IMG/VR virus record: IMGVR_UViG_2872698443_000004
Span: 1 to 51,075 of that record
Length of the DNA: 51,075 nt
Reading direction: 5' to 3' (one strand)
Origin: a virus
Taxonomy: Duplodnaviria > Heunggongvirae > Uroviricota > Caudoviricetes
Shown here piece by piece: positions 2,408 through 19,291 of this stretch. A program made the position numbers and the translations under genes. Under the pieces are notes generated by a model. The model made no database searches and was not told the DNA's origin. It saw only the letters and a program-made list of their open reading frames with translations. Position 1 is the first letter of the stretch; every line of letters begins with the position of its first letter.

Positions 2408-2604
2408 TGGTTGCCTCCTTTGCGCCACATCGCATTCAGATATCTGTTGTCGTTAACAGAACCGAAACTCTTTCTCTTAAGCAATTCCTCTCTCGATGGC
2501 ATTGGCTTTACGCGTTGGCGAATAATCATTTCTGCCGGAAGAATGCCGGGATTGTATGCAAGTCCTCTCATGGTAAATTCCTCAGTCATTACTGATAGCG
2601 CCAT
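2404..2604 (-). CDS. Hypothetical small protein
   Basis: Track ORF begins with TTG at 2724 and overlaps neighbour; first ATG at 2602-2604; weak SD. Confidence 0.3.
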
Positions 2605-2878
2605 AGCGTGAGCGGTAATTACGCAGGCGCGGGTCGATATATTCAGGGAAGTGGGTATATGTGGCTTTGCGGAATGGTCGGATTGATGTCTGGTAAATTC
2701 GCTCGCGTTCTTCTTTCTCTGCAAGCCATATACAGTGGCGAAATTCCTTTTCCTCTTTCGTTTCCTGCGGTAGCGACATTATCCGGTCGTAGTTTTTTCT
2801 GAATTTATCCAGCACCTCCGATACGGAATTGCCGGAACAGCGGCGCACGTCATCCGCACCATACAGAGGCGCTGGCAT
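2582..2878 (-). CDS. Hypothetical phage protein
   Basis: 98-aa ORF, ATG preceded by AGGAGAAA SD. Confidence 0.5.
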
Positions 2879-2891
2879 GATTTTCTCCTGA

Positions 2892-3407
2892 TTAAATTGC
2901 GTGAATAGCGTGACGAGGGAAGGGGAGAGTTACTGGTGCAAAGGGTATATCGTCGTCAAAATCCATAGGTGGTTCGCTATGATTCCCCTGCTGCTGAGGT
3001 TGCTGTCTTTGTTGCTGACCGTTATTTCGCTGAGGTGAAGACTGTTCATTGCCTCCTTGCTTGCCACCAAGCATTTGCATAGTTCCACCAACGCCCACGA
3101 TGACTTCAGTAGTGAACCGATCCTGTCCGCTTTGATCCTGCCATTTTCTTGTCCGCAATTTGCCTTCAAGATAAACCTCAGAGCCTTTTCGCAGATATTC
3201 GCTGGCAATTTCTGCCAGTTTCCCGCTCATTACCACGCGGTGCCACTCCGTCTGCTCCTTTTGCTCTCCAGTTTGCTTATCACGCCATTGTTCTGACGTA
3301 GCAACTGTAAGGTTTGCAAATGCCGTTCCTGATGGTGAATATCTGATTTCTGGATCATGCCCAAGGCGACCAATAATGATCACCTTATTTACGCCTCTAC
3401 TTCCCAT
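2892..3407 (-). CDS. ssb: Single-stranded DNA-binding protein with 15-aa C-terminal extension
   Basis: OB-fold N-terminus ([16 protein letters not shown]), Gly/Gln-rich linker, acidic [10 protein letters not shown] motif; ORF continues 15 codons past the usual terminal Phe. Confidence 0.85.
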
Positions 3408-4115
3408 TTATGCCGCCTGTTTTAGTTCGTTAACTCTGATGTTCATTACCTGAACGCATTTAGCCTGCGCCTCCTCGTTGCCAGCCATTAATTGCCAGTC
3501 ACGCTGATAACGCTCGATGAGTTTTTTCTTGTCAGTTTCTGTTGACGCATAATCGCTGAAGTCTTTCAGGATTTGTTCGCAGTCAACCGATGGAGATTTC
3601 TGGTTGGTATTTTCTGGTGATGGTTTGTTATCTGATGCTGGGATTGCCCAGCCCGGCAGCGATGGAGGGAGCCAGTAAAATCCTGTTCCATCCTTCAGTT
3701 TTGCCCTGTGCCACCCCTGCTTTTTATCGGGAGATGTTTGTGCGAAACCTTCCTCAAGGTTATACAGATACCGACCGATTCCCCACTGAACGGCAGCGCG
3801 CTTCATTGCACCGGAACGACCACCTTTGACGGCTTCTACCTGCGTGTTTTCAGCAGCATCCCATTTGGTTACCCATTCGGAATCAATCTTTATTGATATG
3901 CCGCATTCAACGCCGCCGTTGTTGGGAATATCGCGGTATTCATTGCGCCATCCTGCTTTGCCACAAACATCGTCAAGGCGTTTCATGATTGCCCGGTTCG
4001 TGACATAAGCCAGCACCATAGCCCACACTTTTCCATCGCGTGTTTTACCGCTTTGCTGTATTCGCCATTCGATATCTTCGGGGCTGAATGGCTCATCGAA
4101 TTTATTCAAATCCAT
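3408..4115 (-). CDS. Rad52-like single-strand annealing (recombination) protein
   Basis: 235 aa; GIGRYLY-type motif; directly upstream of ssb in leftward operon; GAGGTG SD. Confidence 0.6.
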   Translation of the reverse strand: MDLNKFDEPFSPEDIEWRIQQSGKTRDGKVWAMVLAYVTNRAIMKRLDDVCGKAGWRNEYRDIPNNGGVECGISIKIDSEWVTKWDAAENTQVEAVKGGRSGAMKRAAVQWGIGRYLYNLEEGFAQTSPDKKQGWHRAKLKDGTGFYWLPPSLPGWAIPASDNKPSPENTNQKSPSVDCEQILKDFSDYASTETDKKKLIERYQRDWQLMAGNEEAQAKCVQVMNIRVNELKQAA

Positions 4116-4123
4116 AATTCACC

Positions 4124-4294
4124 TCAGAATGGACATGGCCCAAGGAAATAACGCTGATTTAATACTTCAGTCTTTGCCGCATTTAAAAATACGCGAACAC
4201 CTTCACGATCTCCCTTCTGGCGATACATTAACGCCTGCTGCGTGTACATGCGTCTCTGTAACTTGCTCTCCTTCACTGTGGTTGCAAGTGACAT
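4124..4294 (-). CDS. Small hypothetical protein (56 aa)
   Basis: ATG preceded by strong AAGGAGATATTC SD; overlaps 4203..4373 in another frame, so only one may be real. Confidence 0.3.
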   Translation of the reverse strand: MSLATTVKESKLQRRMYTQQALMYRQKGDREGVRVFLNAAKTEVLNQRYFLGPCPF

Positions 4295-4373
4295 GAATAT
4301 CTCCTTCGTTACCGATTAATTCTTTCATCTGACGAATGAATTCTTCGTCTGACCAGTTATCTGTAAAACTCAT
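4203..4373 (-). CDS. Small acidic hypothetical protein (56 aa)
   Basis: ATG overlaps kil stop (ATGA coupling); acidic N-terminus MSFTDNWSDEEF. Confidence 0.3.
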   Translation of the reverse strand: MSFTDNWSDEEFIRQMKELIGNEGDIHVTCNHSEGEQVTETHVHAAGVNVSPEGRS

Positions 4374-4522
4374 TTCCTGCGATACCACGGAAGGTTGATA
4401 GCTGATTTCATCGCTTTATTTGCTTCAATCCACATTTTTGAATCACCAATAAATCTGGCTATTACTGCTTTGTTCTGTGCTGCACGAAGCATCTGGTGAT
4501 TGATGGCTATTTCATTGCGCAT
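4370..4522 (-). CDS. kil: Kil-like host division inhibitor (50 aa)
   Basis: MRNEIAINHQ...IARFIGDSKMW resembles recalled lambda Kil core; GAGG SD; start overlaps end of cIII as in lambda. Confidence 0.5.
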   Translation of the reverse strand: MRNEIAINHQMLRAAQNKAVIARFIGDSKMWIEANKAMKSAINLPWYRRK

Positions 4523-4638
4523 AATAAGACCTCAACTCTTTTCCATCCGTCACGTAATTTACGGGTGATTCGTTCAAGTAAAGATTCATTTAGTTGGAAG
4601 GCACCCATGCGAGCGCCTCCCGCGATTGCGTAAATCAT
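4507..4638 (-). CDS. cIII: CIII-like protease inhibitor (43 aa)
   Basis: MIYAIAGG...ESLLERITRKLRDGWKR matches lambda CIII core; AAGGA SD. Confidence 0.65.
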   Translation of the reverse strand: MIYAIAGGARMGAFQLNESLLERITRKLRDGWKRVEVLLCAMK

Positions 4639-4662
4639 GGGTGGTTCCTTATGTTGGTTTTA

Positions 4663-5631
4663 TTAGTAGGTTATTTTTGTTGCGAATACTTCGCCTTTTA
4701 CGATGGCTGTTATGATATTTTTAGCAACATCTTCTGATGCGCCAACCTTGATAAGGTCAGCAAGTATTTTGTTATTTACTTCTTTCCGGTGAGCTTTATC
4801 CTTTGCTCTACGCTCTTCTTCGTCCTTGATTCTTTTTTCTTCTGCTATTCTGGCTTGCTCTTTTGCTTCAGCTTCGCGCCGGATTCGTTCAGCCTCCTCC
4901 TGTGCTTTTCGGCGTTCTGCTTCAATTGCCGCCTGCTTTTCTCTTTCAGCTCGTTCTGCTGCCTCTTTTGCTTCGCGCTGTGCTCGTTGCTCGGCTTCAA
5001 TGCGTTCACGCTCTGCACGTTCCGCTGCGGCCTTAGCTTCTGCTTCTCGCCTTGCTGCTGCTTCAATTTCGGCTTTTGCCTTTGCTTCGGCTTCAGCTCT
5101 GGCTTTCTCTTCAGCTTCTCTTTTTAAGCGTTCTTCATGCTCTCGCTTTTCCTGCTCCGCTTTGAGTCTTGCCTCTTCTCTTTGGCGGTCAAATTCGCGA
5201 TCCATCAAAATCGCTATTTCATGGTCAGACTCAATTTGCTTTGCGAGAGCTTCAGCTGCTGCCTTAGCTTCTTCTTCGGCTTTAATTCGCGCCTGTTCTT
5301 CCTCATAATCAGTAAGAGGCTGGCGCGCCTTGGCTTTCAGTTCATCAAGGCGATCACGCACTGTCTTGCGGTTGGCATCAATTAGCTTTGGAATTTCCTT
5401 CAGTTCAGCAACAAGGTCTTTGCCAAGACCATCGAGATATGTTTTCGTCTGCGCAACTTTATACGCCAGAGAAGCGATCTCCTTTCTGCCCTTTGCCGTT
5501 GTGATATCAGGCACAAAGGACATAACTTCACGTTCAACCTTTTGGAGAATTTCTTCAATCTGGTCAGCAGACTGAAATACAATCATTGCATTTGCTTTTT
5601 CAATAACAACTAAATCTGTTACTTCACTCAT
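4663..5631 (-). CDS. Hypothetical coiled-coil protein with long E/A/K/R-rich repeat region
   Basis: 322 aa; GGAGGA SD; central ~150 aa of AEAKAKAE/REAEEK-type repeats; first gene after tL1-like terminator. Confidence 0.6.
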   Translation of the reverse strand: MSEVTDLVVIEKANAMIVFQSADQIEEILQKVEREVMSFVPDITTAKGRKEIASLAYKVAQTKTYLDGLGKDLVAELKEIPKLIDANRKTVRDRLDELKAKARQPLTDYEEEQARIKAEEEAKAAAEALAKQIESDHEIAILMDREFDRQREEARLKAEQEKREHEERLKREAEEKARAEAEAKAKAEIEAAARREAEAKAAAERAERERIEAEQRAQREAKEAAERAEREKQAAIEAERRKAQEEAERIRREAEAKEQARIAEEKRIKDEEERRAKDKAHRKEVNNKILADLIKVGASEDVAKNIITAIVKGEVFATKITY

Positions 5632-5643
5632 ATATCCTCCATC

Positions 5644-5669
5644 AAAAAAATGCCCTCACACTGGAGGGC
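5644..5669 (-). terminator. Rho-independent terminator (tL1-like)
   Basis: Hairpin GCCCTC-ACACTG-GAGGGC with 7-nt U-tract on minus strand. Confidence 0.5.
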
Positions 5670-5762
5670 AAAGAAGATTTCCAATAATCAGAACAAGTCG
5701 GCTCCTGTTTAGTTACGAGCGACATTGCTCACATAGCAGACTCGTAAATCTGCTATAGGCGC

Positions 5763-5921
5763 TTATTCGCATCGCATGACAACATCAAATTTTTCGAGAT
5801 TACTTTGTCGCAACAATCCTTCTTCTACTCGGTCAGCTTTTCTATAATTATCAAATTCGAAGTGTTTAATTACTTCTTTTGTTTCTCGCTCTATAACTTC
5901 AACGATGTATCTCTTATTCAT
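5763..5921 (-). CDS. Small hypothetical protein (52 aa)
   Basis: ATG overlaps TAA of upstream gene (TAATG); not in ORF track (<60 aa). Confidence 0.35.
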   Translation of the reverse strand: MNKRYIVEVIERETKEVIKHFEFDNYRKADRVEEGLLRQSNLEKFDVVMRCE

Positions 5922-6190
5922 TACTCATCACCTAGGGCTTTTTTGATAGCTTCGCGAGCCTTATTAACAGCTCCATACCATTCTGGATATGTTGTCGTTG
6001 TTCTATTTTCGGCTTGCTTAAGTAATAACTGAAGTGCTTCAAGTAAATCCGGTGCAGCCATAGCCAACCTTCCATTTGCTACGGCCTCTTCTGTTTCTTT
6101 ACCGGATAGGGCCATTCCAGGGTGTGAAAATAAAATTAAGCCTGCAAAATTGGCTTCTCGCCAATTTTTCCTAGTACCTTTAAATTCCAT
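5921..6190 (-). CDS. Hypothetical protein
   Basis: 89 aa, AGAGG SD. Confidence 0.45.
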   Translation of the reverse strand: MEFKGTRKNWREANFAGLILFSHPGMALSGKETEEAVANGRLAMAAPDLLEALQLLLKQAENRTTTTYPEWYGAVNKAREAIKKALGDE

Positions 6191-6227
6191 GTTAGCCTCT
6201 GTTGTTTATGCCAAAAATAAAGGCCGA

Positions 6228-6412
6228 CTATGCGGCCTCGGAAGGAAGTCCAATCATCTTATTCAAATCTTCTACCCGTAAAGCAGGAAGTGCTGTACTT
6301 GCTTTATCTGCTTCTTTTGGTAGCAATTCTTTGCTTTCAGGCCAAACTTCAATAAGTCGCTTAACTGTTGTGACTGAGTTCAAAGCAGCCCATACATTTG
6401 ATTCGATATCCT
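6228..6412 (-). pseudogene. C-terminal part of early-left gene split by IS1
   Basis: Reading frame of the 7181..7628 fragment continues across the IS1 target duplication into this segment, ending at TAG 6228-6230. Confidence 0.5.
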
Positions 6413-6427
6413 GGTAATGACTCCAAC

Positions 6428-6931
6428 TTATTGATAGTGTTTTATGTTCAGATAATGCCCGATGACTTTGTCATGCAGCTCCACCGATTTTGAGAACGAC
6501 AGCGACTTCCGTCCCAGCCGTGCCAGGTGCTGCCTCAGATTCAGGTTATGCCGCTCAATTCGCTGCGTATATCGCTTGCTGATTACGTGCAGCTTTCCCT
6601 TCAGGCGGGATTCATACAGCGGCCAGCCATCCGTCATCCATATCACCACGTCAAAGGGTGACAGCAGGCTCATAAGACGCCCCAGCGTCGCCATAGTGCG
6701 TTCACCGAATACGTGCGCAACAACCGTCTTCCGGAGCCTGTCATACGCGTAAAACAGCCAGCGCTGGCGCGATTTAGCCCCGACATAGCCCCACTGTTCG
6801 TCCATTTCCGCGCAGACGATGACGTCACTGCCCGGCTGTATGCGCGAGGTTACCGACTGCGGCCTGAGTTTTTTAAGTGACGTAAAATCGTGTTGAGGCC
6901 AACGCCCATAATGCGGGCAGTTGCCCGGCAT
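6428..6931 (-). CDS. insB: IS1 transposase InsB
   Basis: 167-aa ORF inside IS1. Confidence 0.9.
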
Positions 6932-7125
6932 CCAACGCCATTCATGGCCATATCAATGATTTTCTGGTGCGTACCGGGTTGAGAAGCGGTGTAAGTGAAC
7001 TGCAGTTGCCATGTTTTACGGCAGTGAGAGCAGAGATAGCGCTGATGTCCGGCGGTGCTTTTGCCGTTACGCACCACCCCGTCAGTAGCTGAACAGGAGG
7101 GACAGCTGATAGAAACAGAAGCCAC
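6850..7125 (-). CDS. insA: IS1 protein InsA
   Basis: 91-aa ORF with CPSC...CSHC zinc motif inside IS1. Confidence 0.9.
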
Positions 7126-7180
7126 TGGAGCACCTCAAAAACACCATCATACACTAAATCAGTAAGTTGGCAGCATTACC

Positions 7181-7628
7181 CGATATCCTTTTTCTTGGCT
7201 TCAAGTTTTTGTTGCAATGCGCAGATTTCATCAAACCTTTTTGTTATTTCGTGTTCTGCGCTAAACATGCATTTATCTTCGTTCGGAGCAGGGAGCAATA
7301 TATCTTCGCCGTTGCCGTCTTTCCCATATGAAAGCCATCCAACCCTTCTGCCAGATACAGTCAGATAAATTGAAGTAGAACGAACATCGTATGAGTAAAA
7401 TGAACATCCCATCTTTTCAAGTTCTTCACTTATAGCTACCAACTTGGATGATAACTGATCCACTTCCTCAGTTTTCTTTTTACCGCCAAACGCAATAACT
7501 CTGGCGTCAAGTGCAAGCTGGTTCTTTAACTTTGTTACTTCTTCAAGTTCAGTGAAAACCCCAGACTTAATTAAAGCGTTACGAGCGATTTCCTCTTTCA
7601 TTCTCGTAGTTAAGCGGATTGATGACAT
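7181..7628 (-). pseudogene. N-terminal part of early-left gene interrupted by IS1
   Basis: Likely start ATG 7626-7628 with GAGG SD; frame runs into IS1 where a stop at 7176-7178 truncates it. Confidence 0.5.
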
Positions 7629-7693
7629 ATTAATTCCTCTCAAATAAGTGCTTTGCTGCCAAAACAATGAACCATCCGGAAATTCCAGATAGT

Positions 7694-7921
7694 TCATAAT
7701 TCACTCTTCAATACTTCCAACTTACTAATCGCCGATAGATATCCGCGCTGATAGGGCATCATCATTCCTTCGAGCTTGCCACTTCTTAACTCCTCCCTGA
7801 GCAATTGTATTGCTTGATCAATAACCTCTGCCTTAGCGTCCTTTATGGCTTGCTTGCGGGGCTTTGCTTTCTGCTTTGGCAGATTTCTCAAGCATGATGG
7901 AATGTATGTCTGATTCATCAC
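7694..7921 (-). CDS. Hypothetical protein downstream of N
   Basis: 75-aa ORF, GTG immediately after N stop, ATG one codon later. Confidence 0.4.
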   Translation of the reverse strand: MMNQTYIPSCLRNLPKQKAKPRKQAIKDAKAEVIDQAIQLLREELRSGKLEGMMMPYQRGYLSAISKLEVLKSEL

Positions 7922-8194
7922 TTACCTCGCCGTCAGTTGTTTTGATTTCCGGTATCCTGCCGCGTAAATGGCTACGTTTGGCAGGCAAATACTTCCACTG
8001 CATTCTTCTGCCTTCTTGCAGCGAAGGCTTCCGAGCGATGCTGCTTTGTCTGCTCTGACGCAACCAGAGAGCTTTAGCGCAATTTTTCGCGCCAGTGCTT
8101 CATTACTGCGTCGCTCGGCAATAAGTTCTGCTCTGCGAGCTTTGTAGCGGCTTTTTGCCGTACCTTTGGATTCTTTCCAGACAATGGTTACCAT
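7922..8194 (-). CDS. N: N-like transcription antitermination protein
   Basis: Arginine-rich N-terminus (GTAKSRYKARRAELIAERR); first gene downstream of pL and nutL; AAGGAG SD. Confidence 0.7.
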   Translation of the reverse strand: MVTIVWKESKGTAKSRYKARRAELIAERRSNEALARKIALKLSGCVRADKAASLGSLRCKKAEECSGSICLPNVAIYAAGYRKSKQLTAR

Positions 8195-8304
8195 GATGGT
8201 CTCCTTTAAGTGGCTTTGGCGCATGACGCGTCGAGGTGCTTATCTTCTCGATCGCTGTCTTGCAGCTGCAATTCGCGCCATCCCCAAAACCACTCAAGTT
8301 CTGG

Positions 8305-8345
8305 TCTCAACGGTTAGGTTGAGAGTCCGTCGATGTTAAAGAGCA
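8305..8345 (-). promoter_or_regulatory. nutL (boxB hairpin 8305-8324, boxA 8334-8344)
   Basis: Minus-strand GCTCTTTAACA then hairpin UCUCAAC-CUAACC-GUUGAGA between pL and N; boxA identical to nutR. Confidence 0.6.
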
Positions 8346-8391
8346 TGCCAATCTGTTCCGTTTGGCTTCCAGCGTCCTGCTGATGGCTTAA

Positions 8392-8419
8392 ATTTAAGAC
8401 TTCTTAATTTATTGGTCAA
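8392..8419 (-). promoter_or_regulatory. pL promoter with OL operator
   Basis: Minus-strand -35 TTGACC (8414-8419), 16-nt spacer, -10 TTAAAT (8392-8397); palindrome TTAAGACTTCTTAA at 8394-8407. Confidence 0.5.
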
Positions 8420-8483
8420 GTGTATTTTTGAAGAAAACTTAATTTTATGGGCGTGAATTTAGTTTGTCTTTGATTTTTAACGG

Positions 8484-8508
8484 GAAATAAAAAAGGGGCG
8501 AAAGCCCC
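8484..8508 (-). terminator. Rho-independent terminator after cI
   Basis: GGGGC-GAAA-GCCCC hairpin right after cI stop, U-tract on minus strand. Confidence 0.6.
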
Positions 8509-9159
8509 TTAAGGAAGGTTTGCTAGCTTGGCATCAACGACAACGCCAATGATTTTACAGTTCCCATTGATTTCAATCATTGGGTATTGTGGATTGAGTG
8601 GTTTCAGGAATTTTCTCCCGGCATCAATAACTAACTTTTTGAATGTCGCCTCGTTTTCTCCTTCAAGTTTGGCGACTACCAGCTTTCCATTACGTGGTTC
8701 GACTTCTGGGTCGACGAGAATAATCATCCCCTCAGGAATACTCAGTCCTGCCGGGGCAGTCATTGAGTCGCCTTTAACGTCGAGCCAAAAAGAGTCTTCA
8801 GAACAATCTACCGTTGTGTCGTACCAGTTATCTATTGCACGCCTATGATATGGCTCTACAGCTTCCATCCAACATCCTGCGCTTACCCAACTAATTAGAG
8901 GATACGAACCTCTTGGATCATGCCTGCTGTGATAGGCAATGTTTGAAAGACTATCCTCTCCTTTCAACAGGTAATCAGGGGAGCACTGCAAAGCCTTGGC
9001 TAAGGCCAATAGGTTTTCGCCATTGGGCTCAGTTTCAGATCGCTCCCATTGGGAAATAGCAACATTAGACACGCCAACCATCTTGCCAAGGGCAGCCTGC
9101 CTAATCTTGAGTTCTTTTCTGCGAGCGCGAATACGCTCACCCATCAGTTGTGTATTCAT
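8509..9159 (-). CDS. cI: CI repressor (HTH + S24 LexA-like autopeptidase)
   Basis: N-terminal XRE-type HTH; Ala-Gly cleavage site (VSAGCW); GDSM and VVAKL catalytic motifs; divergent from cro. Confidence 0.85.
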   Translation of the reverse strand: MNTQLMGERIRARRKELKIRQAALGKMVGVSNVAISQWERSETEPNGENLLALAKALQCSPDYLLKGEDSLSNIAYHSRHDPRGSYPLISWVSAGCWMEAVEPYHRRAIDNWYDTTVDCSEDSFWLDVKGDSMTAPAGLSIPEGMIILVDPEVEPRNGKLVVAKLEGENEATFKKLVIDAGRKFLKPLNPQYPMIEINGNCKIIGVVVDAKLANLP

Positions 9160-9239
9160 AGTTAAGACATCTTAAATAAACTTGACTTAAGATTCCTTTG
9201 GTGGATAATTTAAGTGTTCTTTAATTTCGGAGCGAGTCT
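9160..9239. promoter_or_regulatory. OR operators with divergent PR/PRM
   Basis: PR -35 TTGACT (9182-9187), 16-nt spacer, -10 GATAAT (9204-9209); palindrome TTAAGACATCTTAA (9162-9175) and related site around 9209-9224. Confidence 0.6.
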
Positions 9240-9425
9240 ATGTACAAAAAAGATGTTATTGACCACTTCGGAACCCAGCGTGCTGTTGCTAAAGCACTAG
9301 GCATTAGCGATGCAGCAGTCTCTCAGTGGAAAGAAGTTATCCCAGAGAAAGACGCCTATCGATTGGAAATCGTTACAGCTGGCGCCCTGAAGTATCAAGA
9401 AAGTGCTTACCGCCAAGCGGCATAA
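9240..9425 (+). CDS. cro: Cro repressor
   Basis: 61 aa, HTH QRAVAKALGISDAAVSQW; divergent from cI. Confidence 0.8.
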   Translation: MYKKDVIDHFGTQRAVAKALGISDAAVSQWKEVIPEKDAYRLEIVTAGALKYQESAYRQAA

Positions 9426-9432
9426 GCAAATT

Positions 9433-9473
9433 GCTCTTTAACAGTTCTGGCCTTTCACCTCTAACCGGGTGAG
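9433..9473 (+). promoter_or_regulatory. nutR (boxA 9433-9443, boxB hairpin 9454-9473)
   Basis: GCTCTTTAACA followed by hairpin UCACC-UCUAACC-GGUGA just after cro. Confidence 0.6.
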
Positions 9474-9540
9474 CAAACATCAGCGGCAAATCCATTGGGT
9501 GTGCCGCTATAACTCAATATCAATATAGGAAAATTAACAA

Positions 9541-9837
9541 ATGGCACAAGCAAGCTACAGCAAGCCAACACAGCGAGAAATTGATCGCGCTGAAACTGAT
9601 TTACTCATCAACCTGTCAACGCTTACCCAGCGCGGTCTGGCAAAGATGATTGGCTGTCATGAATCGAAGATAAGCAGAACGGACTGGAGATTTATTGCTT
9701 CGGTCTTGTGTGCTTTCGGAATGGCATCAGACATCAGTCCGATTAGCAGGGCTTTTAAGTATGCGCTTGATGAAATCACAAAGAAAAAATCCCCGGCCGC
9801 CACCGAGGATTTTAAGCAAATTGATATGCAATTCTGA
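9541..9837 (+). CDS. cII: CII-like transcriptional activator
   Basis: 98 aa; C-terminus KKKSPAATEDFKQIDMQF parallels lambda CII; HTH in middle. Confidence 0.75.
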   Translation: MAQASYSKPTQREIDRAETDLLINLSTLTQRGLAKMIGCHESKISRTDWRFIASVLCAFGMASDISPISRAFKYALDEITKKKSPAATEDFKQIDMQF

Positions 9838-9869
9838 GGGAATTACTGGATCAATCCACAGGAGTAATT

Positions 9870-10031
9870 ATGACAAAACGTCGTAAGAAATACCAGGAAA
9901 AAGAAGAGATTCGACACCCTGATTCACCTGAGGGATTAGTGGTAGCCGCAGCAAATAACAGGGCGTTCGCAGAGCGCCTTGTTGGTGTTTACAGACTAGC
10001 CAAAGCAGGAGTGAAACATGGGCGTCGTTAA
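9870..10031 (+). CDS. Small basic hypothetical protein (53 aa)
   Basis: AGGAG SD; stop overlaps start region of O; below ORF-track size cutoff. Confidence 0.4.
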   Translation: MTKRRKKYQEKEEIRHPDSPEGLVVAAANNRAFAERLVGVYRLAKAGVKHGRR

Positions 10032-10839
10032 GTTAGCTGATTACAGGCCTCAACTGGAGGTCGTGGAGCATCGCGTGGCAGATACCGAAGATGGTTTCAT
10101 GCGCGTTGCTAACGAGATTACCGACAGTCTGCTGATGGCTGATTTAACCGTCCGGCAGTTGAAGGTGATGCTCGCTATCATGCGCAAGACATACGGATTC
10201 AATAAGCCGATGGATCGACTCACAAACACGCAGATAGCAGCCATGACAGGTATTCATCACACTCATGTTTGCGCTGCCAAGCGCCAGCTTATTGAGCGTA
10301 AATTCCTCATTGCTGATGGCGTGAAAATCGGAGTGAACAAGGTGGTTTCTCAGTGGATTAGCCAGGACAGCTTAACATTAGCCAAAACAGCTAATAAAAC
10401 ATTAGCCAAGTCAGCTAATGGGTATAAGCCAAGTCAGCTAAACACAAAAGACAATATACAAAAGACAATAAATACAAATACCCCCTTACCCCCTAACGGG
10501 GGCGGCGATGGGCAGGTTAAACCTGAACGTCGCAAGGCAGAACGCATCGACTACGAATCCTTCCTGAACGCCTACAACACCGAAGTCGGTGACAGGCTGC
10601 CACACGCTGTTGCGGTCAACGAGAAACGCAAACGTCGCCTGAAGAAAATCATCCCGCAACTGAAAACGCCAAACGTGGACGGTTTCAGAGCGTATGTCAG
10701 GGCGTTTGTACATCAGGCCAAGCCGTTTTACTTCGGAGACAACGACACGGGCTGGACGGCCGATTTTGATTACCTGCTGAGGGAAGACTCGTTAACGGGA
10801 GTTCGGGAAGGGAAGTTTGCAGACAGGGGGATTGCATGA
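10018..10839 (+). CDS. O: Replication initiation protein O-like
   Basis: 273 aa; position after cII; iteron array inside its coding sequence; followed by helicase. Confidence 0.7.
10355..10485 (+). repeat. Origin iterons plus A-rich tract within O
   Basis: Four tandem ~18-20 bp repeats (TTAGCCAGGACAGCTTAA / TTAGCCAAAACAGCTAA / TTAGCCAAGTCAGCTAA / TAAGCCAAGTCAGCTAA) then A-rich 10441-10485. Confidence 0.6.
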
Positions 10840-12212
10840 GACAGGATATCGAAGCGAGCGTTATCGGTGGCCTGCTGATTGGTGGATTAACACCAACCGC
10901 CAGCGACGTTCTGGCAACGCTGGAGCCGGAGGCGTTTTCAATTCCGCTCTACAGAAAAGCCTTCGAGGTTATCCGGAAGCAGGCGCGAAACAGAAACCTC
11001 ATTGACGCGCTGATGGTTGCCGAGGAGTGCGGAGAGGAGCATTTCACGTCAATCCTGATGACCAGCAAAAACTGCCCGAGTGCCGCAAACCTGAAGGGAT
11101 ATGCCGGAATGGTCGCGGATAACTATCACCGCCGTCTGGTGCTGGAAATCATGGATGAAATGCGTGAACCAATTCAGAGCGGAACCATCGACGCATCGAG
11201 TCAGGCGATGGATGAGCTTGTAAAGCGTCTCTCAGCCATCAGAAAGCCCCGTGACGAGGTTAAACCTGTACGGTTAGGGGAAATCATCACTGACTACACC
11301 GACACGCTTGACAGGCGTCTGAGGAACGGAGAAGAGTCAGATACCCTGAAGACCGGAATCGAAGAACTTGACGCCATCACCGGAGGGATGAACGCAGAAG
11401 ACCTTGTGATAATCGCTGCTCGTCCTGGTATGGGGAAAACCGAACTGGCGCTGAAGATTTCCGAAGGCGTTGCAAGCCGCGTTATTCCTGGTTCTGACGT
11501 CCGGCGCGGGGTATTGATTTTCTCAATGGAAATGAGCGCATTGCAGATTGCAGAGCGAAGCATTGCCAACGCCGGGAGGATGTCGGTTAGTGTGCTGCGA
11601 AATCCTGCAGCGATGGATGACGAAGGCTGGGCACGTGTTGCTAACGGCATGAGTCAGCTTGCAGATTTGGATGTATGGGTTGTCGATGCCTCGCGGTTAT
11701 CGGTCGAAGAAATACGCTCAATCGCAGAACGGCACAAACAGGAAAACCCAAACCTGTCACTCATCATGGCGGATTATCTTGGCCTGATTGAGAAGCCGAA
11801 AGCAGACCGCAACGACCTTGCAATTGCTCACATCTCCGGAAGCCTGAAGGCGATGGCGAAGGACCTGAAAACGCCTGTTATCTCCCTGAGTCAGCTTTCG
11901 CGCGATGTTGAGAAGCGACCAAACAAACGCCCGACAAACGCAGATTTGCGTGATTCAGGAAGCATTGAACAGGACGCAGACTCAATCATCATGCTCTATC
12001 GGGAAGCGGTATATGACGAGAACAGTAGCGCCGCGCCATTTGCTGAAATCATCGTGACGAAAAACCGTTTTGGCTCGCTTGGTACGGTTTACCAGCGGTT
12101 CTGTAACGGACACTTTGTTGCATGTAACCAGGATGAAGCCAGACAGATTTGCACAGCATCAAATGCACCTGCTGCGCGTGGCAGACGATATGCACAAGGG
12201 GCGGACGTATGA
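10836..12212 (+). CDS. Replicative DNA helicase (DnaB family)
   Basis: 458 aa; Walker A (ARPGMGKTE), DnaB-type motifs; start overlaps O stop. Confidence 0.85.
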
Positions 12213-12238
12213 CCATCTACATCACTGAGCTAATAACA

Positions 12239-12266
12239 GGCCTGCTGGTAATCGCAGGCCTTTTTA
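12239..12266 (+). terminator. Rho-independent terminator after helicase (tR2-like)
   Basis: GGCCTGC-TGGTAATC-GCAGGCC hairpin followed by TTTTT. Confidence 0.55.
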
Positions 12267-12607
12267 TTTGGGGGAGAGGGAATTGTGGCTGACTGGTAAA
12301 TTCCAATCATCATTCTTGCCGGAGCTTCGCTGGTTTCTGGCTTTATCCTGCTGAAAAAGCATAAAGACCGTGATCAAAAAGTCGAAGTTCTCTATGGGTA
12401 TCCAGCGAACAGCACAACATGGCTGACCATTTACCACTACCGAAAATCAGGACGCTGGGTATTCGAATGGGATGATCTGTTCGCTGAAAAGCGACCAAAG
12501 TCATGGGGAGACATCAGCGAATGCATGATGTTTGAAGAAAGAAAATCCGGCGCAACCCGAGAAGAGTTTAACGAAGCGTGGGCGCGATTAAGTGAGAGAG
12601 GGTATTT

Positions 12608-12808
12608 GTGAGCAAGTACGAAAAATTAGATCAAAACATTCTTTCAATGCTGAGTGAAAGACCAACACCTGTTTTTGATATCTGGCTTAAATGGCGGAGC
12701 AATGGAATGTATATCGAAACCATCGATCGCCGTATGCAATACCTGAGAAAGAAAGGGCTTGTTGCAAATGTGCGTGGGAAGGGTTGGGTGAAAATTAACC
12801 TGTCATAA
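12608..12808 (+). CDS. Hypothetical small protein
   Basis: 66 aa, GTG start. Confidence 0.4.
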   Translation: MSKYEKLDQNILSMLSERPTPVFDIWLKWRSNGMYIETIDRRMQYLRKKGLVANVRGKGWVKINLS

Positions 12809-12819
12809 CGGGGATTGAT

Positions 12820-13092
12820 ATGGACGAATCAAGAAAGCAGTTTTTGGAGTTCGCGAAAAAGCAAAATTTAAGCCTTGCATATGGTGATTGCGGGTATGTT
12901 TATTCATCCACGGAAATGGCATGGAGGGCATGGCAGGCATCTCGCGCAGCTATCGAGATTGAGTGTCCTGGAAAAAGAGAGCGTGAGGCATTTTCTACCG
13001 ATTTCGAGGATGGGGTCACATTTGGTTATAACGACGCAATTAGTGAATGCGAAGGACGGATTCGCGCTGCTGGAGTCAAAGTGAAGGAGTAA
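12820..13092 (+). CDS. Hypothetical nin-region protein
   Basis: 90 aa ORF. Confidence 0.45.
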   Translation: MDESRKQFLEFAKKQNLSLAYGDCGYVYSSTEMAWRAWQASRAAIEIECPGKREREAFSTDFEDGVTFGYNDAISECEGRIRAAGVKVKE

Positions 13093-13094
13093 CG

Positions 13095-13541
13095 ATGAAG
13101 CAAATATACATGCTTCGCAACGAAGAAATCAGAAACAACGCCATAGACGCAATACTCTCACTTCCCATCGACGACAAGTCACCTCACGAAGTCCACGTTA
13201 GAGAACCCAAACGCAGCAAAGCGCAGAATGACCGTATGTGGCCGATGCTGAACGATGTTTCGCGTCAGGTGCTATGGCATGGTCAACGGCTGGCACCGGA
13301 AGACTGGAAAGACCTGTTCACTGCCCTGTGGCTTAAGACCAAAAAACTGGAGCAACGAAGTGTGCCTGGTATCGACGGTGGCGTTGTCATGCTTGGCGTG
13401 CGTACCAGCAAAATGCGAAAGGCCAGCATGACTGAGCTTATCGAAATCATGTTCTGGTTCGGCTCAGAGCGCAACGTGCGGTGGAGTGATGACTCCCGGC
13501 GAGAGTATGAATGGTCACAACGAAAAGGTAGGGCTGCATGA
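13095..13541 (+). CDS. ninB: NinB recombination protein
   Basis: Start trimmed to ATG 13095 with AAGGAG SD; DQN...DVSRQV.WHG...KWSD motifs as recalled for lambda NinB. Confidence 0.8.
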   Translation: MKQIYMLRNEEIRNNAIDAILSLPIDDKSPHEVHVREPKRSKAQNDRMWPMLNDVSRQVLWHGQRLAPEDWKDLFTALWLKTKKLEQRSVPGIDGGVVMLGVRTSKMRKASMTELIEIMFWFGSERNVRWSDDSRREYEWSQRKGRAA

Positions 13542-14065
13542 CTATCAAATCAAATACGCCAGCACACGACAAGGACTGCTGGCAAACGCCGCTTTGGCTT
13601 TTTGATGCACTGGATATTGAGTTTGGATTCTGGCTGGATTCGGCAGCGAGCGACAAAAATGCTCTGTGCGCTCACTGGTTAACTGAGGCCGACGACGCGC
13701 TCAATTCTGAGTGGGTAAGCCACGGTGCAATATGGAATAACCCACCGTACAGCAATATCAGGCCGTGGGTGGAAAAAGCCGCTGAGCAGTGCATACAACA
13801 GCGACAGACGGTAGTTATGCTTGTGCCAGAGGATATGTCAGTCGGATGGTTCAGCAAGGCTCTGGAGAGTGTCGACGAAGTTCGCATTATCACTGATGGA
13901 CGGATTAATTTTATCGAACCATCGACAGGGCTGGAGAAGAAGGGAAACAGCAAAGGCTCCATGCTGCTGATTTGGCGACCGTTCATCAGTCCTCGACGGA
14001 TGTTTACTACCGTATCCAAAGCGGCATTGATGGCGATCGGGCAGGGCGTCAGGAGGGCGGCATGA
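13538..14065 (+). CDS. Phage DNA N6-adenine methyltransferase
   Basis: NPPY catalytic motif ([10 protein letters not shown]); 175 aa; nin region. Confidence 0.8.
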
Positions 14066-14244
14066 GGCGACAGCGACGAAGTATCACCGACATAATCTGC
14101 GAAAACTGCAAATACCTTCCAACGAAACGCTCCAGAAATAAACGCAAGCCAATCCCAAAAGAATCTGACGTAAAAACCTTCAATTACACAGCTCACCTGT
14201 GGGATATCCGGTGGCTAAGACATCGTGCGAGGAATACAAGGTGA
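14062..14244 (+). CDS. ninE: NinE protein
   Basis: [20 protein letters not shown]... matches recalled lambda NinE; ATGA overlap with upstream stop. Confidence 0.75.
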
Positions 14245-14411
14245 TTGACCCAAATCGAAGTTACGAACAAGAAAGCGTCGAGCGGGCTTTAACGTGCGCT
14301 AATTGCGGTCAGAAGCTGCATGTGCTGGAAGTTCACGTATGTGAGCACTGCTGCGCAGAACTGATGAGCGATCCGAATAGCTCAATGTACGAGGAAGAAG
14401 ACGATGAATGA
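14241..14411 (+). CDS. ninF: NinF protein
   Basis: GTG start with GAGGAA SD; [28 protein letters not shown] matches recalled lambda NinF. Confidence 0.7.
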
Positions 14412-15126
14412 GTTAATAAATGGCAATGCCATAAAAATGACAAGCATTGAAATCGCTGAGTTGGTTGGTAAGCGTCATGACAATGTGAAACGTACCATCG
14501 AAACGCTGGCTAAAAATGGTGTTATCCGGCTTCCTCAAATTGAGGATTGTGGAAGAATCAATGGGTTAGGCTTAAATCAAAGTTTTTGTGTGTATGTATT
14601 CGAAGGCGAACAAGGAAAGCGAGACAGTATTGTCGTTGTAGCCCAGTTGTCGCCGGAATTCACGGCTCGCCTTGTTGACCGTTGGCGAGAGCTTGAAGAA
14701 GCTGCGGTTAATATCCCAAAAACGCTACCAGAAGCGTTGCGCCTTGCTGCTGATCTTGCTGAGCAGAAAATGCAACTGGAAAACCAGCTCGCAATTGCCG
14801 CACCTAAAGTTGAGTTTGCCGATCGCGTTGGCGAGGCCAGCGGAATTTTGATTGGAAACTTTGCAAAGGTTGTCGGTATTGGTCCAAACAAACTGTTTGC
14901 GTGGATGCGCGATCACAAAATCCTTATTGCTTCAGGTTCCCGGCGAAATGTGCCAATGCAGGAATATATGGAGCGCGGCTATTTCACAGTGAAAGAAACA
15001 GCGGTCAACACAAATCACGGAATACAGATATCGTTCACCACAAAAATCACCGGGCGTGGTCAACAGTGGCTGACCAGAAAGCTGCTCGATAACGGAATGC
15101 TGAAAGTAACAGGTGAGGCTGCTTAA
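14404..15126 (+). CDS. Rha-family regulator / KilA-C antirepressor-like protein
   Basis: N-terminal TSIEIAELVGKRHDNVKRTIE (Rha-type), C-terminal antirepressor-like domain; 240 aa. Confidence 0.65.
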   Translation: MNELINGNAIKMTSIEIAELVGKRHDNVKRTIETLAKNGVIRLPQIEDCGRINGLGLNQSFCVYVFEGEQGKRDSIVVVAQLSPEFTARLVDRWRELEEAAVNIPKTLPEALRLAADLAEQKMQLENQLAIAAPKVEFADRVGEASGILIGNFAKVVGIGPNKLFAWMRDHKILIASGSRRNVPMQEYMERGYFTVKETAVNTNHGIQISFTTKITGRGQQWLTRKLLDNGMLKVTGEAA

Positions 15127-15416
15127 TGGCTAATCTACGCAAAGAAGCACGCGGCAGAGAATGCCAGGTACGTATTTACGGCGTATGCAATGGCAACCCT
15201 GAAACTACAGTTCTGGCACATTACCGGATGGCTGGAATTTGCGGAACGGGAATGAAACCTGACGACCTGATCGGAGCATGGGCTTGTAGCGCGTGTCACG
15301 ATGAAATCGACCGACGCACCCATAACCTCGACAACAAAGACGCCAGACTTTACCACCTCGAAGGCGTGATCAGGACGCAGGCGATACTGCTGGAGGAGGG
15401 GAAGATTAAGCCATGA
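15126..15416 (+). CDS. YbcO-like (DUF1364) nin-region protein
   Basis: 96 aa with conserved Cys/His; directly upstream of rusA as in DLP12. Confidence 0.55.
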   Translation: MANLRKEARGRECQVRIYGVCNGNPETTVLAHYRMAGICGTGMKPDDLIGAWACSACHDEIDRRTHNLDNKDARLYHLEGVIRTQAILLEEGKIKP

Positions 15417-15775
15417 ACGAATATCAGTTTGTGCTTCCATACCCGCCGTCGGTGAACACCTACTGGCGAAGACGGGGAAGCCAATACTACATCAGCGATA
15501 AAGGCCAGAAATACCGAAAAGACGTTCAGCAAATCATCCGCCAACTCAAGTTAGACATTTTCACCAAATCACGACTCCGCATCAAAGTCATCGCAGACGT
15601 TCCAGACTCCCGCCGCCGCGACCTCGACAACATCCTGAAAGGTTTACTCGACTCCCTTATCCACGCCGGATTTGCGGAAGACGACGAGCAATTCGATGAC
15701 ATTCGCGTAATTCGTGGTGTGAAAGTACCAGGCGGACGGCTTGGAATAAAAATCACCGAACTGGAGAACGCATGA
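15413..15775 (+). CDS. rusA: RusA Holliday junction resolvase
   Basis: 120 aa; PPSVNTYWRRR and RRRDLDN catalytic motifs. Confidence 0.85.
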   Translation: MNEYQFVLPYPPSVNTYWRRRGSQYYISDKGQKYRKDVQQIIRQLKLDIFTKSRLRIKVIADVPDSRRRDLDNILKGLLDSLIHAGFAEDDEQFDDIRVIRGVKVPGGRLGIKITELENA

Positions 15776-15960
15776 ACGCCACAATTCAAACGATACCAGA
15801 GCTTCTTATCCAGACACGAGGCAATCAGACCGAAGTGGCGAGGATGCTTTCCTGCGCAAGAGGAACAGTGCTCAAGTACAACCGAGACAGCAAAGGCGAT
15901 CGTCACGTAATAGTTAACGGCGTCCTGATGGTCAAACAGGGAAAGAGGGGAAGACGATGA
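15772..15960 (+). CDS. ninH: NinH-like protein
   Basis: 62 aa; GNQTEVARMLSCARGTVLKY HTH resembling lambda NinH. Confidence 0.6.
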   Translation: MNATIQTIPELLIQTRGNQTEVARMLSCARGTVLKYNRDSKGDRHVIVNGVLMVKQGKRGRR

Positions 15961-16445
15961 GCATAAGAGAACTAAACCTCACCAAAGAGCAGCACGAGTG
16001 GCTGAATGGCTGGCTTGAACTGTGGGGAGCATGGGTTTATTCAGGCCGCCTGGAAAAGCGCATGAGCAGCGTAATAGCGAAGTTCATGGAGAGCGTAGAG
16101 CCGGGAAGAGTTATGACAAGGCCAATGTGTAATGATGATGATGGAATGTTGATTTCTCAGGTCGTCGATTCCGTCATGTACATTGACAAGAAAGCCTTTG
16201 GCATCCTCCTCAGCTACTACGCTCATGGATCTTCCAAGCATGCCATTGCATCTTACTATCATCGTGTCGCAAGACCTCGCAAGATGTTATGCCGGGGCGG
16301 CGGGCGTATTCAAAAACCATCGCTCGCAACCTGTCGCCGGGAAGTTGACGAAATCCTCAATGCTTCGTTGTTTATGATTTACCCGGTTCTGGATAGTGCG
16401 TTTAAAAATCGGAAACGTGTAGAGAAAATTAAACATGTAGCATAG
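15957..16445 (+). CDS. Q: Late-gene antiterminator Q-like protein
   Basis: 162 aa; last gene of nin region, directly upstream of promoter-like element, tRNAs and lysis cassette; not lambda Q. Confidence 0.55.
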   Translation: MSIRELNLTKEQHEWLNGWLELWGAWVYSGRLEKRMSSVIAKFMESVEPGRVMTRPMCNDDDGMLISQVVDSVMYIDKKAFGILLSYYAHGSSKHAIASYYHRVARPRKMLCRGGGRIQKPSLATCRREVDEILNASLFMIYPVLDSAFKNRKRVEKIKHVA

Positions 16446-16448
16446 AAC

Positions 16449-16535
16449 TTGTTGACATCATTGAGCAAATGAGCAACACTATTGGCATAAGCTGCCGTTA
16501 GTGACTCTTAAGTTGCAACGGTGGCTTTTTTTATT
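16449..16535 (+). promoter_or_regulatory. Putative late promoter pR' / qut with downstream terminator-like hairpin
   Basis: -35 TTGACA at 16452-16457; weak -10; imperfect hairpin 16493-16526 followed by TTTTTTT. Confidence 0.4.
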
Positions 16536-16536
16536 T

Positions 16537-16611
16537 GGGTCAGTCGTATAAAGGTCATTACGGAAGGCTGTTAACCTTCTTATCGTGGTTCGAGTCCACG
16601 CTGTCCCGCCA
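16537..16611 (+). tRNA. tRNA, anticodon GUU (Asn) by manual fold
   Basis: 75 nt cloverleaf: acceptor with one mismatch, perfect anticodon stem GAAGG/CCTTC, loop CTGTTAA, T-arm CGTGG-TTCGAGT-CCACG, 3' CCA; D-stem weak. Confidence 0.5.
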
Positions 16612-16616
16612 AATAT

Positions 16617-16692
16617 GCTGGTTTAGCTCCAATGGTAGAGCAGTCGCCTTGTAAGCGAATGGGTAGCGGTTCAAGTCCGTTAACCAGCACCA
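16617..16692 (+). tRNA. tRNA, anticodon UGU (Thr) by manual fold
   Basis: 76 nt: acceptor GCTGGTT/AACCAGC, D-stem GCTC/GAGC, loop CTTGTAA, T-loop TTCAAGT, 3' ACCA. Confidence 0.65.
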
Positions 16693-16934
16693 TAACTGAG
16701 CCGTAGCCACTGGCTATCCTGAATTCATCAGTGATAGTTACGCTGCGGCATTCTACGCATGACCTTCGTGAAAGCGGGTGGCATGAGGTTGCCCTAACAA
16801 CCTCCTGCCGTTTTGCCCGTGCATATCGGTCACGAACAAATCTGATTACTAAACACAGTAGCCTGGATTTGTTCTATCAGTAACCGACCATATTCCTAAT
16901 TAAATAGAGCAAATCCCCTTATTGGGGGTAAGAC

Positions 16935-17258
16935 ATGAAGATGCCAGAAAAACATGACCTGTTAGCCGCCATTCTCGCGGCAAAGGAACAAGGCATCGGG
17001 GCAATCCTTGCGTTTGCAATGGCGTACCTTCGCGGCAGATATAATGGCGGTGCGTTTACAAAAACAGTAATCGACGCAACGATGTGCGCCATTATCGCCT
17101 GGTTCATTCGTGACCTTCTCGACTTCGCCGGACTAAGTAGCAATCTCGCTTATATAACGAGCGTGTTCATCGGCTACATCGGTACTGACTCGATTGGTTC
17201 GCTTATCAAACGCTTCGCTGCTAAAAAAGCCGGAGTAGAAGATGGTAGGAATCAATAA
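16935..17258 (+). CDS. S: Holin S (lambda-type, dual-start MKM)
   Basis: Matches lambda S as recalled; Met1-Lys2-Met3 dual start; hairpin CCCC-TTATT-GGGG just upstream. Confidence 0.9.
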
Positions 17259-17718
17259 TCAACGTAAGGCGTTCCTCGATATGCTGGCATGGTCAGAGGG
17301 AACTGATAACGGACGTCAGAAAACCAGAAATCATGGTTATGACGTCATTGTAGGAGGAGAGCTATTCACTGATTACTCCGATCACCCTCGCAAACTTGTC
17401 ACGCTAAACCCCAAACTCAAATCAACAGCAGCCGGACGTTATCAGCTTCTTTCCCGTTGGTGGGATGCCTATCGTAAGCAGCTTGGCCTGAAAGACTTCT
17501 CCCCCAAAAGCCAGGACGCAGTGGCATTGCAGCAGATTAAAGAACGTGGCGCTTTACCTATGATTGATCGCGGTGATATCCGTCAGGCAATCGACCGTTG
17601 CAGCAATATCTGGGCTTCACTGCCGGGTGCTGGTTATGGTCAATTCGAGCATAAGGCTGACAGCCTGATTGCAAAATTCAAAGAAGCAGGCGGAACGGTC
17701 AGAGAGATTGATGTATGA
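17242..17718 (+). CDS. R: Endolysin R (lambda-type lytic transglycosylase)
   Basis: 158 aa, matches lambda R as recalled. Confidence 0.9.
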
Positions 17719-18152
17719 GCAGAGTCACCGCGATTATCTCCGCTCTGGTTATCTGCATCATCGTCTGCCTGTCATGGGCGGTTAATCATTACCGTGATAA
17801 CGCCATCGCCTACAAAGAGCAGCGCGATAAAGCCACGTACATCATCGCTGACATGCAGAAGCGTCAACGTGATGTAGCAGAACTTGACGCCAGATACACA
17901 AAGGAGCTTGCTGATGCTAACGCGACTATCGAAAGTCTCCGTGCTGATGTTTCTGCTGGGCGTAAGCGCCTGCAAGTCGCCGCCACCTGTGCAAAGTCAA
18001 CGACCGGAGCCAGCAGCATGGGCGATGGAGAAAGCCCAGGACTTACAGCAGATGCTGAACTCAATTATTACCGTCTCCGAAGTGGAATCGACAGGATAAC
18101 CGCGCAGGTTAACTACCTGCAGGAGTACATCAGGACTCAGTGCCTGAAATAA
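17715..18152 (+). CDS. Rz: Spanin inner-membrane subunit Rz
   Basis: N-terminal TM helix then coiled-coil; follows R; contains embedded Rz1. Confidence 0.8.
17947..18099 (+). CDS. Rz1: Spanin outer-membrane lipoprotein Rz1 (embedded in Rz, +1 frame)
   Basis: MFLLGVSAC lipobox then proline-rich [13 protein letters not shown]; entirely within Rz. Confidence 0.7.
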
Positions 18153-18184
18153 TTTTTTTGCAAATCACAAAGTCCATTTAATGA

Positions 18185-18208
18185 GCCTCGCGATGCGGGG
18201 CTTTTTTA
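18185..18208 (+). terminator. Rho-independent terminator after lysis cassette
   Basis: GCCTCGC-GAT-GCGGGGC hairpin followed by TTTTTT. Confidence 0.5.
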
Positions 18209-18351
18209 TATCTGAATTTCACAGCGCATCTCACGCGCATATTAACGAGAGCCTTTCAGTAAGCGAGCCTGAGAAATGCCGTTATAGGTGGCGACCTCTC
18301 TCGGGCGGCTTTTCTGTGAGACAGGCTCACTTTCTAAAAGGTAAAGACGCT

Positions 18352-18870: not shown

Positions 18871-19291
18871 CCATTCCAAAGCCCATCTACTGGTGGGCTT
18901 GATAATGAAACCGTGATTTACATCCCTCACAATCCAGGTATGTAAAAGCTGGATCATGCGAGAACGGATTTAACTAAATCTGTACGCCACCAGTTAACGG
19001 CAGTACCACGAAGCAACCCAAGCCAGAAAGTGGGGAAATAACACTGGCAGCCACTGAAAGATGAACCTCCTGCCTTATGGCAAAAAAGATTCTTTGTGGT
19101 GGCGGACTGATGGAAAGACATCGGTTATTGCAGAGACCATTCAATGAGTGGTCTCGACAATGGCTTATACCCTGCACGGGATAACTTAACTGATATCCCC
19201 ACAAGCGGATAAAGAGGTCCTCAATGTCAGGAATCTACTTTTAGTCCTAGTAATGATGAACTAGATATCAGTTGAGTCGCTTGGGTGGTGA

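Follow-up and report, generated by a model that had tools for sequence, protein, structure and literature searches.

Is the run of short repeats in the middle of the O-like gene of this prophage the origin from which the phage replicates? The location of the lambda origin inside the lambda O gene is textbook knowledge, and a comparable arrangement is found in the window analysed here, the whole 51,075-nt stretch of the Caudoviricetes record IMGVR_UViG_2872698443_000004 (positions 1 to 51,075). We consider that the repeats and the adjoining A-rich tract are very probably the vegetative replication origin of a lambdoid prophage, similar to ori-lambda and located within its own initiator gene, in the middle part that encodes the linker.

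The open reading frame, domain matches, and megablast define a gene for an O-family replication initiator of 273 residues at 10018..10839 on the plus strand. Its product matches Pfam Phage_rep_O (PF04492) at residues 19-113 (E = 6e-33; 113.7 bits against a cut-off of 28.7) and NCBIfam phage_O_Nterm (TIGR01610; 97.4 bits against 45.5), and corresponds over its full length to phrog_345, 'replication initiation O-like'. The N-terminal DNA-binding domain, a predicted winged helix with limits taken from the Pfam and NCBIfam matches, is encoded by 10072..10356 (plus strand). A proline/glycine linker and the C-terminal domain, which is probably the helicase-recruiting module, are encoded by 10480..10836 (plus strand). 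The O stop codon overlaps the start of a gene for a DnaB-type replicative helicase of the P22 gene 12 / HK97 'P' type (10836..12212, plus strand). The helicase matches Pfam DnaB_C (E = 4e-77), the DnaB N-terminal domain, and phrog_19, and its matches to TIGR00665 and TIGR03600 are both under the curated cut-offs. Upstream of O are a LexA-like repressor (8509-9159, minus strand), a P22-type cro (9240-9425), cII (9541-9837), and a 53-residue ORF (9870-10031; phrog_1331) equivalent to HK97 gp53 and P22 orf48. This order, repressor-cro-cII-ORF-O-helicase, is the standard lambdoid early-right operon. Between cII and O, positions 9845-9877 are identical to the 33-bp oop sequence of lambdoid phages, described as the conserved segment that holds the promoter of this antisense RNA together with its 5' end (PMC3349717); they overlap the start of the 53-residue ORF. 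An Rfam search of the whole window at gathering thresholds returned two tRNAs only, and nothing at the origin or at oop.

A PDB sequence search with O gave nothing at E <= 1, and an AlphaFold2 model built from 35 homologues (identity at least 70%) has low confidence scores, with a pTM of 0.30 and a pLDDT of 50 on average and of 62-72 in the N-terminal winged-helix stretch. The predicted elements (helices 45-57, 70-77, and 81-93, and strands 97-100 and 103-106, which form a β-hairpin at 97-106) follow the winged-helix order. Residues 108-176, which are encoded by the origin, have pLDDT values below 50 and no confident structure, in keeping with the flexible linker reported in lambda O (PMC6022878).

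A repeat finder located four copies in the window, at 10354-10375, 10374-10395, 10398-10419, and 10421-10442. The 17-bp iteron cores within them follow the pattern TTAGC-N7-GCTAA, begin at 10358, 10378, 10402, and 10425 with start-to-start spacings of 20/24/23 bp, and have the consensus TTAGCCAAGaCAGCTAA. Since the 5-bp arms TTAGC and GCTAA are mutually reverse-complementary, each iteron is a hyphenated dyad. Iterons 1 to 4 carry 1, 0, 0, and 1 mismatches to the pattern, respectively. Iteron 1 (10358..10374, TTAGCCAGGACAGCTTA) begins at codon 114 of the O gene, right after the N-terminal domain; it is the most degenerate copy, with two mismatches to the consensus, and its slot at -86 from the ACAAAAGA anchor matches that of lambda iteron 1. 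The 5-bp dyad arms are perfect in iteron 2 (10378..10394, TTAGCCAAAACAGCTAA) and iteron 3 (10402..10418, TTAGCCAAGTCAGCTAA), and iteron 4 (10425..10441, TAAGCCAAGTCAGCTAA) ends 2 nt before the conserved ACAAAAGA, as in lambda.

Counting single sites with up to three mismatches over the whole window was not discriminating (4 seen versus 1.4 expected, with 9 of 100 shuffles reaching 4), and a cluster test that counts matches within 100 nt was used instead. By this measure four matches were observed, while none of 300 dinucleotide-preserving shuffles gave more than one. Elsewhere in the 51-kb window, TTAGC-N7-GCTAA with at most one mismatch occurs at one site, 29752. The repeat finder, the shuffles, and the ORF thus agree with the first-pass annotation, which had placed four tandem repeats and an A-rich tract inside the O gene; its coordinates, 10355-10485, are accurate. 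Iteron number and spacing vary inside the specificity class of the window. IMG/VR contig 3300013025_000050 carries six TTAGC..GCTAA sites at 1842-1969 through a 39-bp duplication of the first two, and in phiES15 iterons 2 and 3 are set further apart by additional bases.

The array (10358-10441) runs into an A-rich, strand-asymmetric tract (10439..10480) with two copies of ACAAAAGACAATA, and TACCCCCTTACCCCCT comes after the tract. Positions 10439-10478 comprise 27 A, 5 T, 6 C, and 2 G (80% A+T). The nearest-neighbour stability of the tract over 40 bp is -43.8 kcal/mol, compared with a window mean of -56.7 (sd 4.0). This value is 3.2 sd above the mean and ranks 39th of 51,035 positions, within the least stable 0.1% of 40-mers. 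The bases that open the tract are common to the window and lambda (ACACAAAAGACA..T.ACAAAAGA). The lambda tract reads ACACAAAAGACACTATTACAAAAGA, and near-identical tracts are present in lambda and in P22, Klebsiella, Providencia, and Erwinia phages. The lambda AT-rich region is also strand-asymmetric (PMC4488673, PMC5043065). The A-rich tract is probably the DNA-unwinding element of the origin.

To the right of the tract, a G+C dyad, CCCCC-taac-GGGGG (10489..10502), was read directly from the sequence, and its membership of the origin is tentative; it is followed by a 29-bp imperfect palindrome, GCGATGGGCAGGTT a AACCTGAACGTCGC (10505-10533). C-run/G-run dyads occur at varying positions in many relatives, with a mean best stem of 5.6 versus 4.1 in shuffles, a small excess that is confounded by proline and glycine codons. 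Between 9800 and 10900, a scan for DnaA boxes found one DnaA-like site with a single mismatch, in the spacer between iterons 3 and 4, and a scan for the IHF consensus found no site.

For comparison with known origins, 12 phages were aligned on the octamer ACAAAAGA (window position 10444): the window, HK97, a Yersinia phage, phiES15, an Erwinia phage, P22, BTP1, a Providencia phage, two Klebsiella phages, 4A7, and lambda. In all 12, dyad-symmetric iterons lie upstream of the octamer, in register except in phiES15 (which has extra bases before the last two), the last iteron ends 2 nt before ACAAAAGA, and the A tract is nearly alike. The iterons themselves belong to the classes TTAGC..GCTAA, TTACC..GGTAA, TTTACC..GGTAAA, and TCCCTC..GAGGGA. 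The array is kept, in the same slots, by O genes that bear ACAAAAGA, both in the 11 reference phages and in 323 of 329 loci. The refuting condition set in the first-pass annotation, absence of the repeats from homologous O genes, was thus not borne out.

In lambda, the four iterons within gene O are bound by dimers of the O protein, which open the AT-rich DNA next to them (PMC5043065, PMC6022878, PMC7466680). The lambda iterons, at 39034, 39054, 39078, and 39101 of the lambda record, have the same 20/24/23 spacing as those of the window. They also lie right after the Phage_rep_O domain, with iteron 4 abutting a strand-asymmetric A-rich tract of ~40 bp that starts with ACACAAAAGACA, and an oop promoter element is located upstream. 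The lambda-type arrangement proposed in the first-pass annotation therefore holds for the dyad sites, the spacing, the position behind the N-terminal domain, and the start of the A tract. On the other hand, lambda has TCCCTC..GAGGGA arms where the window has TTAGC..GCTAA, the two N-terminal domains are 36% identical, the C-terminal domain of lambda O is unrelated to that of the window, and its partner is P, the loader of host DnaB. The window lies outside the ori-lambda class (lambda, 434, 21, 933W, and P27), having TTAGCCAAGaCAGCTAA and GIHHTHVC in place of TCCCTCAAAACGAGGGA and LPVKRCNE. The Stx phages 933W and P27 likewise have their origin inside O, with iterons followed by an AT-rich tract (PMC7466680), but they combine six lambda-type iterons with a P-type loader, whereas the iterons of the window number four and are of the HK97 type.

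P22 shares other parts with the window. The origin-in-O arrangement has been noted for P22 and phage L, and P22 gene 18 has four different repeats of ~20 bp in the same place (PMC8022706). P22 gene 18 and gene 12 agree with the window in the C-terminal class, the kind of helicase, an A tract identical over ~45 nt, and the layout of four slots. However, the P22 iterons are TTTACC..GGTAAA, the motif of gene 18 is MAPTKCST, and its N-terminal identity to the window is 37%. The window is thus outside the gene 18 class (TTTACCGAATCGGTAAA, MAPTKCST), as both arms and motif differ, and only its C-terminal domain and helicase are of the P22 kind.

The closest known system is HK97. Its gene O (gp54) is 98.7% identical to that of the window over 822 nt, and none of the 11 substitutions falls in an iteron arm; two are synonymous and lie at central positions of iterons 2 and 3. 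HK97 has the same four iterons, A tract, downstream helicase (gp55), and small upstream ORF. By megablast, the O genes of HK97, HK544, HK446, mEp213, the Stx phages 1717, 2851, and Nil2, and Salmonella SPN9CC are 98.4-98.9% identical to that of the window. With O, iterons, and helicase near-identical to the gp54/gp55 set and in the same gene order, the window belongs to the HK97-type replication module. Its specificity type is that of HK97, neither lambda nor P22, and O is partnered by a DnaB-type helicase of the phage where lambda has the P-type loader. The origin is already known in kind, a routine copy of a well-understood element that is near-identical to the one in HK97. In the open-access literature we found no experimental study or description of the HK97-type iterons or origin, and the sole match of a full-text search for the iteron sequence was an unrelated Salmonella paper.

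The immunity region and virion module of HK97 are unlike those of the window prophage. The early and replication region (200-19200) is close to P22-like and HK97-like phages (CUS-3, Kapi1, Sf6, and mEp213), and the tail and baseplate region (26076-39800) is close to myoviruses (vB_EcoM-606R2, 94.6%; Salmonella SEN34, 81%). The combination of a P22/HK97-like early region with a myovirus-type tail module marks the prophage as a lambdoid mosaic. From about 40 kb on, the window is covered by none of the phage matches listed and is probably host chromosome. Adjacent phage-borne genes for tRNA-Asn(GUU) and tRNA-Thr(UGU) lie at 16537-16692; phage copies of tRNA-Thr(UGU) are reported to counteract the P2 OLD tRNase (preprint 10.64898/2026.07.10.737580).

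A mosaic prophage, whose early region is lambdoid and whose tail module is of the myovirus type, could be defective, and the element could be a lambda-type origin by descent that is now inactive, either as a relic or because replication starts elsewhere. We regard this as unlikely. The reading frames of O, the helicase, cro, cII, and the repressor are all uninterrupted. The iteron arms are likewise undamaged, with the sequence found in the viable phages HK97, HK544, HK446, and mEp213, and there is no second iteron cluster in the window. HK97 in particular is a viable, plaque-forming phage with a near-identical replication module.

The iterons and the N-terminal domains of O co-vary. The 329 loci gave 111 unique combinations of N-terminal domain and iterons (a lambda-first scan of viral contigs returned lambda-identical loci only and added no diversity). 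The co-varying segment comprises the residues aligned with residues 73-88 of the window protein. Across the 111 combinations, which are related by descent and so less independent than their number suggests, each helix motif pairs with one iteron type. GIHHTHVC, the window class, goes with TTAGCCAA..CAGCTAA, and KHxTHCSTAK, the Erwinia-phage class, with TTAGCGGAA..TGCTAA. The motif [I/M]LPHKCSAAK is paired with TTACCCGAATCAGGTAA, MAPTKCSTAK or IDSTKCSTAK (the P22 class, xTKCST) with TTTACCGAAWCGGTAAA, LPETRCSTER with TTTACAGAATCTGTAAA, and LPVKRCNEAK of lambda with TCCCTCAAAACGAGGGA. The few loci that do not fit, such as phiES15, can be explained by iterons outside the four fixed slots, which scramble the extracted consensus.

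In the low-confidence AlphaFold2 model, the co-varying residues map to the start of the third helix. We infer that residues 79-93, encoded by 10252..10296 (plus strand), are the recognition helix; the HHTH motif within this predicted helix co-varies with the iteron arms. Since the model is of low confidence, this assignment rests on the order of secondary-structure elements and the usual helix-turn-helix pattern. It is quite possible, if a little short of an even chance, that a few residues at the start of this helix set the specificity of the origin. Under that reading the code may be H-x-T-H for TTAGC/GCTAA, [T/H]-K-C-S for TTACC/GGTAA-type arms, and V-K-R-C for TCCCTC/GAGGGA. The Erwinia-phage class is 55% identical to P22 and 46% to the window, yet has H-x-T-H and TTAGC/GCTAA arms. 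With a P22-like domain backbone, HxTH, and TTAGC arms, it looks like a natural swap.

The other half of O follows a different partner. Clustering of the C-terminal parts showed the window-type N-terminal half together with at least five unrelated C-terminal classes. Among 72 unique cases of the window C-terminal class, 53 have a DnaB-type helicase gene downstream and none has a gene of the P or DnaC type. The lambda C-terminal class is followed by P, and a third class by a DnaC-like protein. P22 gp18, BTP1 O, and Stx2a-phage O share the window C-terminal class while their N-terminal halves differ. BTP1 O, for example, consists of the P22 N-terminal half with P22 iterons and a window-type C-terminal half, and in many Stx2a phages the similarity to the window O gene begins only at gene position 445, inside the A tract. 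The iterons thus follow the DNA-binding half, the C-terminal half follows the partner gene, and in these sequence comparisons the A tract is the joint where O modules exchange.

In the Stx2a-converting phage Stx2_EH0505 (locus L006, 1228-2175), the N-terminal half of O is unrelated to the Phage_rep_O type. Many Stx2a-phage O genes have such an unrelated N-terminal half fused, just after the A-tract position, to a window-type C-terminal domain, and carry a mid-gene array of their own with about seven or more 12-bp repeats (CCGCACAnGAnG). A 2,692-bp record named 'Staphylococcus phage SA 1298 Kay' (OR850084.1) is 94% identical to the C-terminal half of the window O gene and is probably mislabelled or contaminated.

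Could the conserved segment then be mainly a recombination joint for module swapping, which owes its conservation to exchange and not to origin function? The near-identity of the A tract across otherwise unrelated O genes and the mosaic boundaries that sit exactly at it, in BTP1 and the Stx2a phages, would be accounted for in this way. However, a joint leaves unexplained why the iterons are class-specific and co-vary with the DNA-binding domain. The two roles are also compatible, and in lambda deletions of the AT-rich region are ori-minus (PMC6022878). We therefore consider a joint without origin function very unlikely.

Conservation within the gene bears on whether the repeats act as DNA or as protein. 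The four iterons are read at frame offsets 1, 0, 0, and 2 and encode ISQDSL, LAKTAN, LAKSAN, and KPSQLN, respectively; since they are read in three frames, the repeat resides in the DNA and not in the protein. In 15 non-redundant relatives of the window-type O from viral contigs, with pairwise amino-acid identities of 48-99%, conservation was measured as the frequency of the majority base at third codon positions. It was 0.86 in the iterons against 0.58 in the N-terminal domain (Mann-Whitney p = 3e-9, optimistic because of kinship) and 0.93 in the A tract against the same 0.58 (p = 3e-5, likewise optimistic). Amino-acid conservation was equal across the iterons, the A tract, and the N-terminal domain (0.77-0.78). 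Inside the iterons, the arms were more conserved than the centre (0.96 versus 0.79; p = 2e-6, in related sequences). Despite the relatedness of the sequences, the effect in these alignments is clear in direction and size. Synonymous conservation thus indicates that selection acts on the DNA of the iterons and the A tract, independently of the protein that they encode.

The O genes of Klebsiella phages 6 LV-2017 and KO-TP1 and of Providencia phage PSTNGR2lys gave blastn matches to the window only in the iteron and A-tract segment (79-91% identity over 55-105 nt), and the remainder of these genes has diverged beyond detection. In these comparisons the origin DNA is therefore the most conserved part of the gene. 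It is hardly credible that the repeats are a by-product of an LAKxAN peptide repeat in the interdomain linker of O with no function as DNA: iterons 2 and 3 do share a frame and encode LAKTAN and LAKSAN within a region predicted to be unstructured, but iterons 1 and 4, which are read in the two remaining frames, encode unrelated peptides. Compared with the folded domain, whose amino-acid conservation is the same, the iterons have much more strongly conserved synonymous sites. A peptide repeat would not call for the inverted repeat within each copy, and the spacing is that of lambda.

Together with the co-variation of iterons and helix, the synonymous-site conservation indirectly supports the proposal, also made in the first-pass annotation, that the coding region of O is a binding site for its own product. 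On the model of lambda and P22, a vegetative origin at this place would work as follows. Rightward early transcription from pR would lead to synthesis of O, and dimers of its N-terminal winged-helix domain would bind the four TTAGC-N7-GCTAA iterons at 10358-10441 and bend the DNA. With the help of negative supercoiling and of pR transcription, the nucleoprotein complex so formed would open the A-rich tract at 10439-10480. In lambda, helicase loading takes place at the A+T-rich region, which is opened by bound O aided by supercoiling and pR transcription (PMC5043065, PMC6022878, PMC7466680, PMC4488673). The C-terminal domain of O would then bring in the DnaB-type helicase of the phage itself, instead of the lambda complex of P and host DnaB. 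The partner in P22 is a phage-encoded DnaB-type helicase, according to a passage in PMC8022706 that cites Wickner 1984. Since the partner in the window is also phage-encoded and of the DnaB type, recruitment probably occurs directly through the O C-terminal domain, without a P-type loader. After helicase loading, the host primase and polymerase would take over.

Of 5,426 complete E. coli genomes, 445 (about 8%) carry the 221-bp origin segment. Being nearly identical to that of HK97 and present in hundreds of E. coli prophages, the origin is an ordinary one. Its use lies in annotation: the prophage type whose origin it marks is found in about 8% of complete E. coli genomes and includes Stx phages, in which toxin production is driven by phage replication. 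The comparative data amount to a natural experiment that could help in planning swaps of specificity or in designing origin decoys against Stx phages. If the helix residues are causal, origin specificity in the O family would be readable from sequence and could be re-engineered, and the A tract, conserved throughout, would be the joint at which a specificity module, made up of the N-terminal half and its iterons, and a helicase-recruiting module reassort freely.
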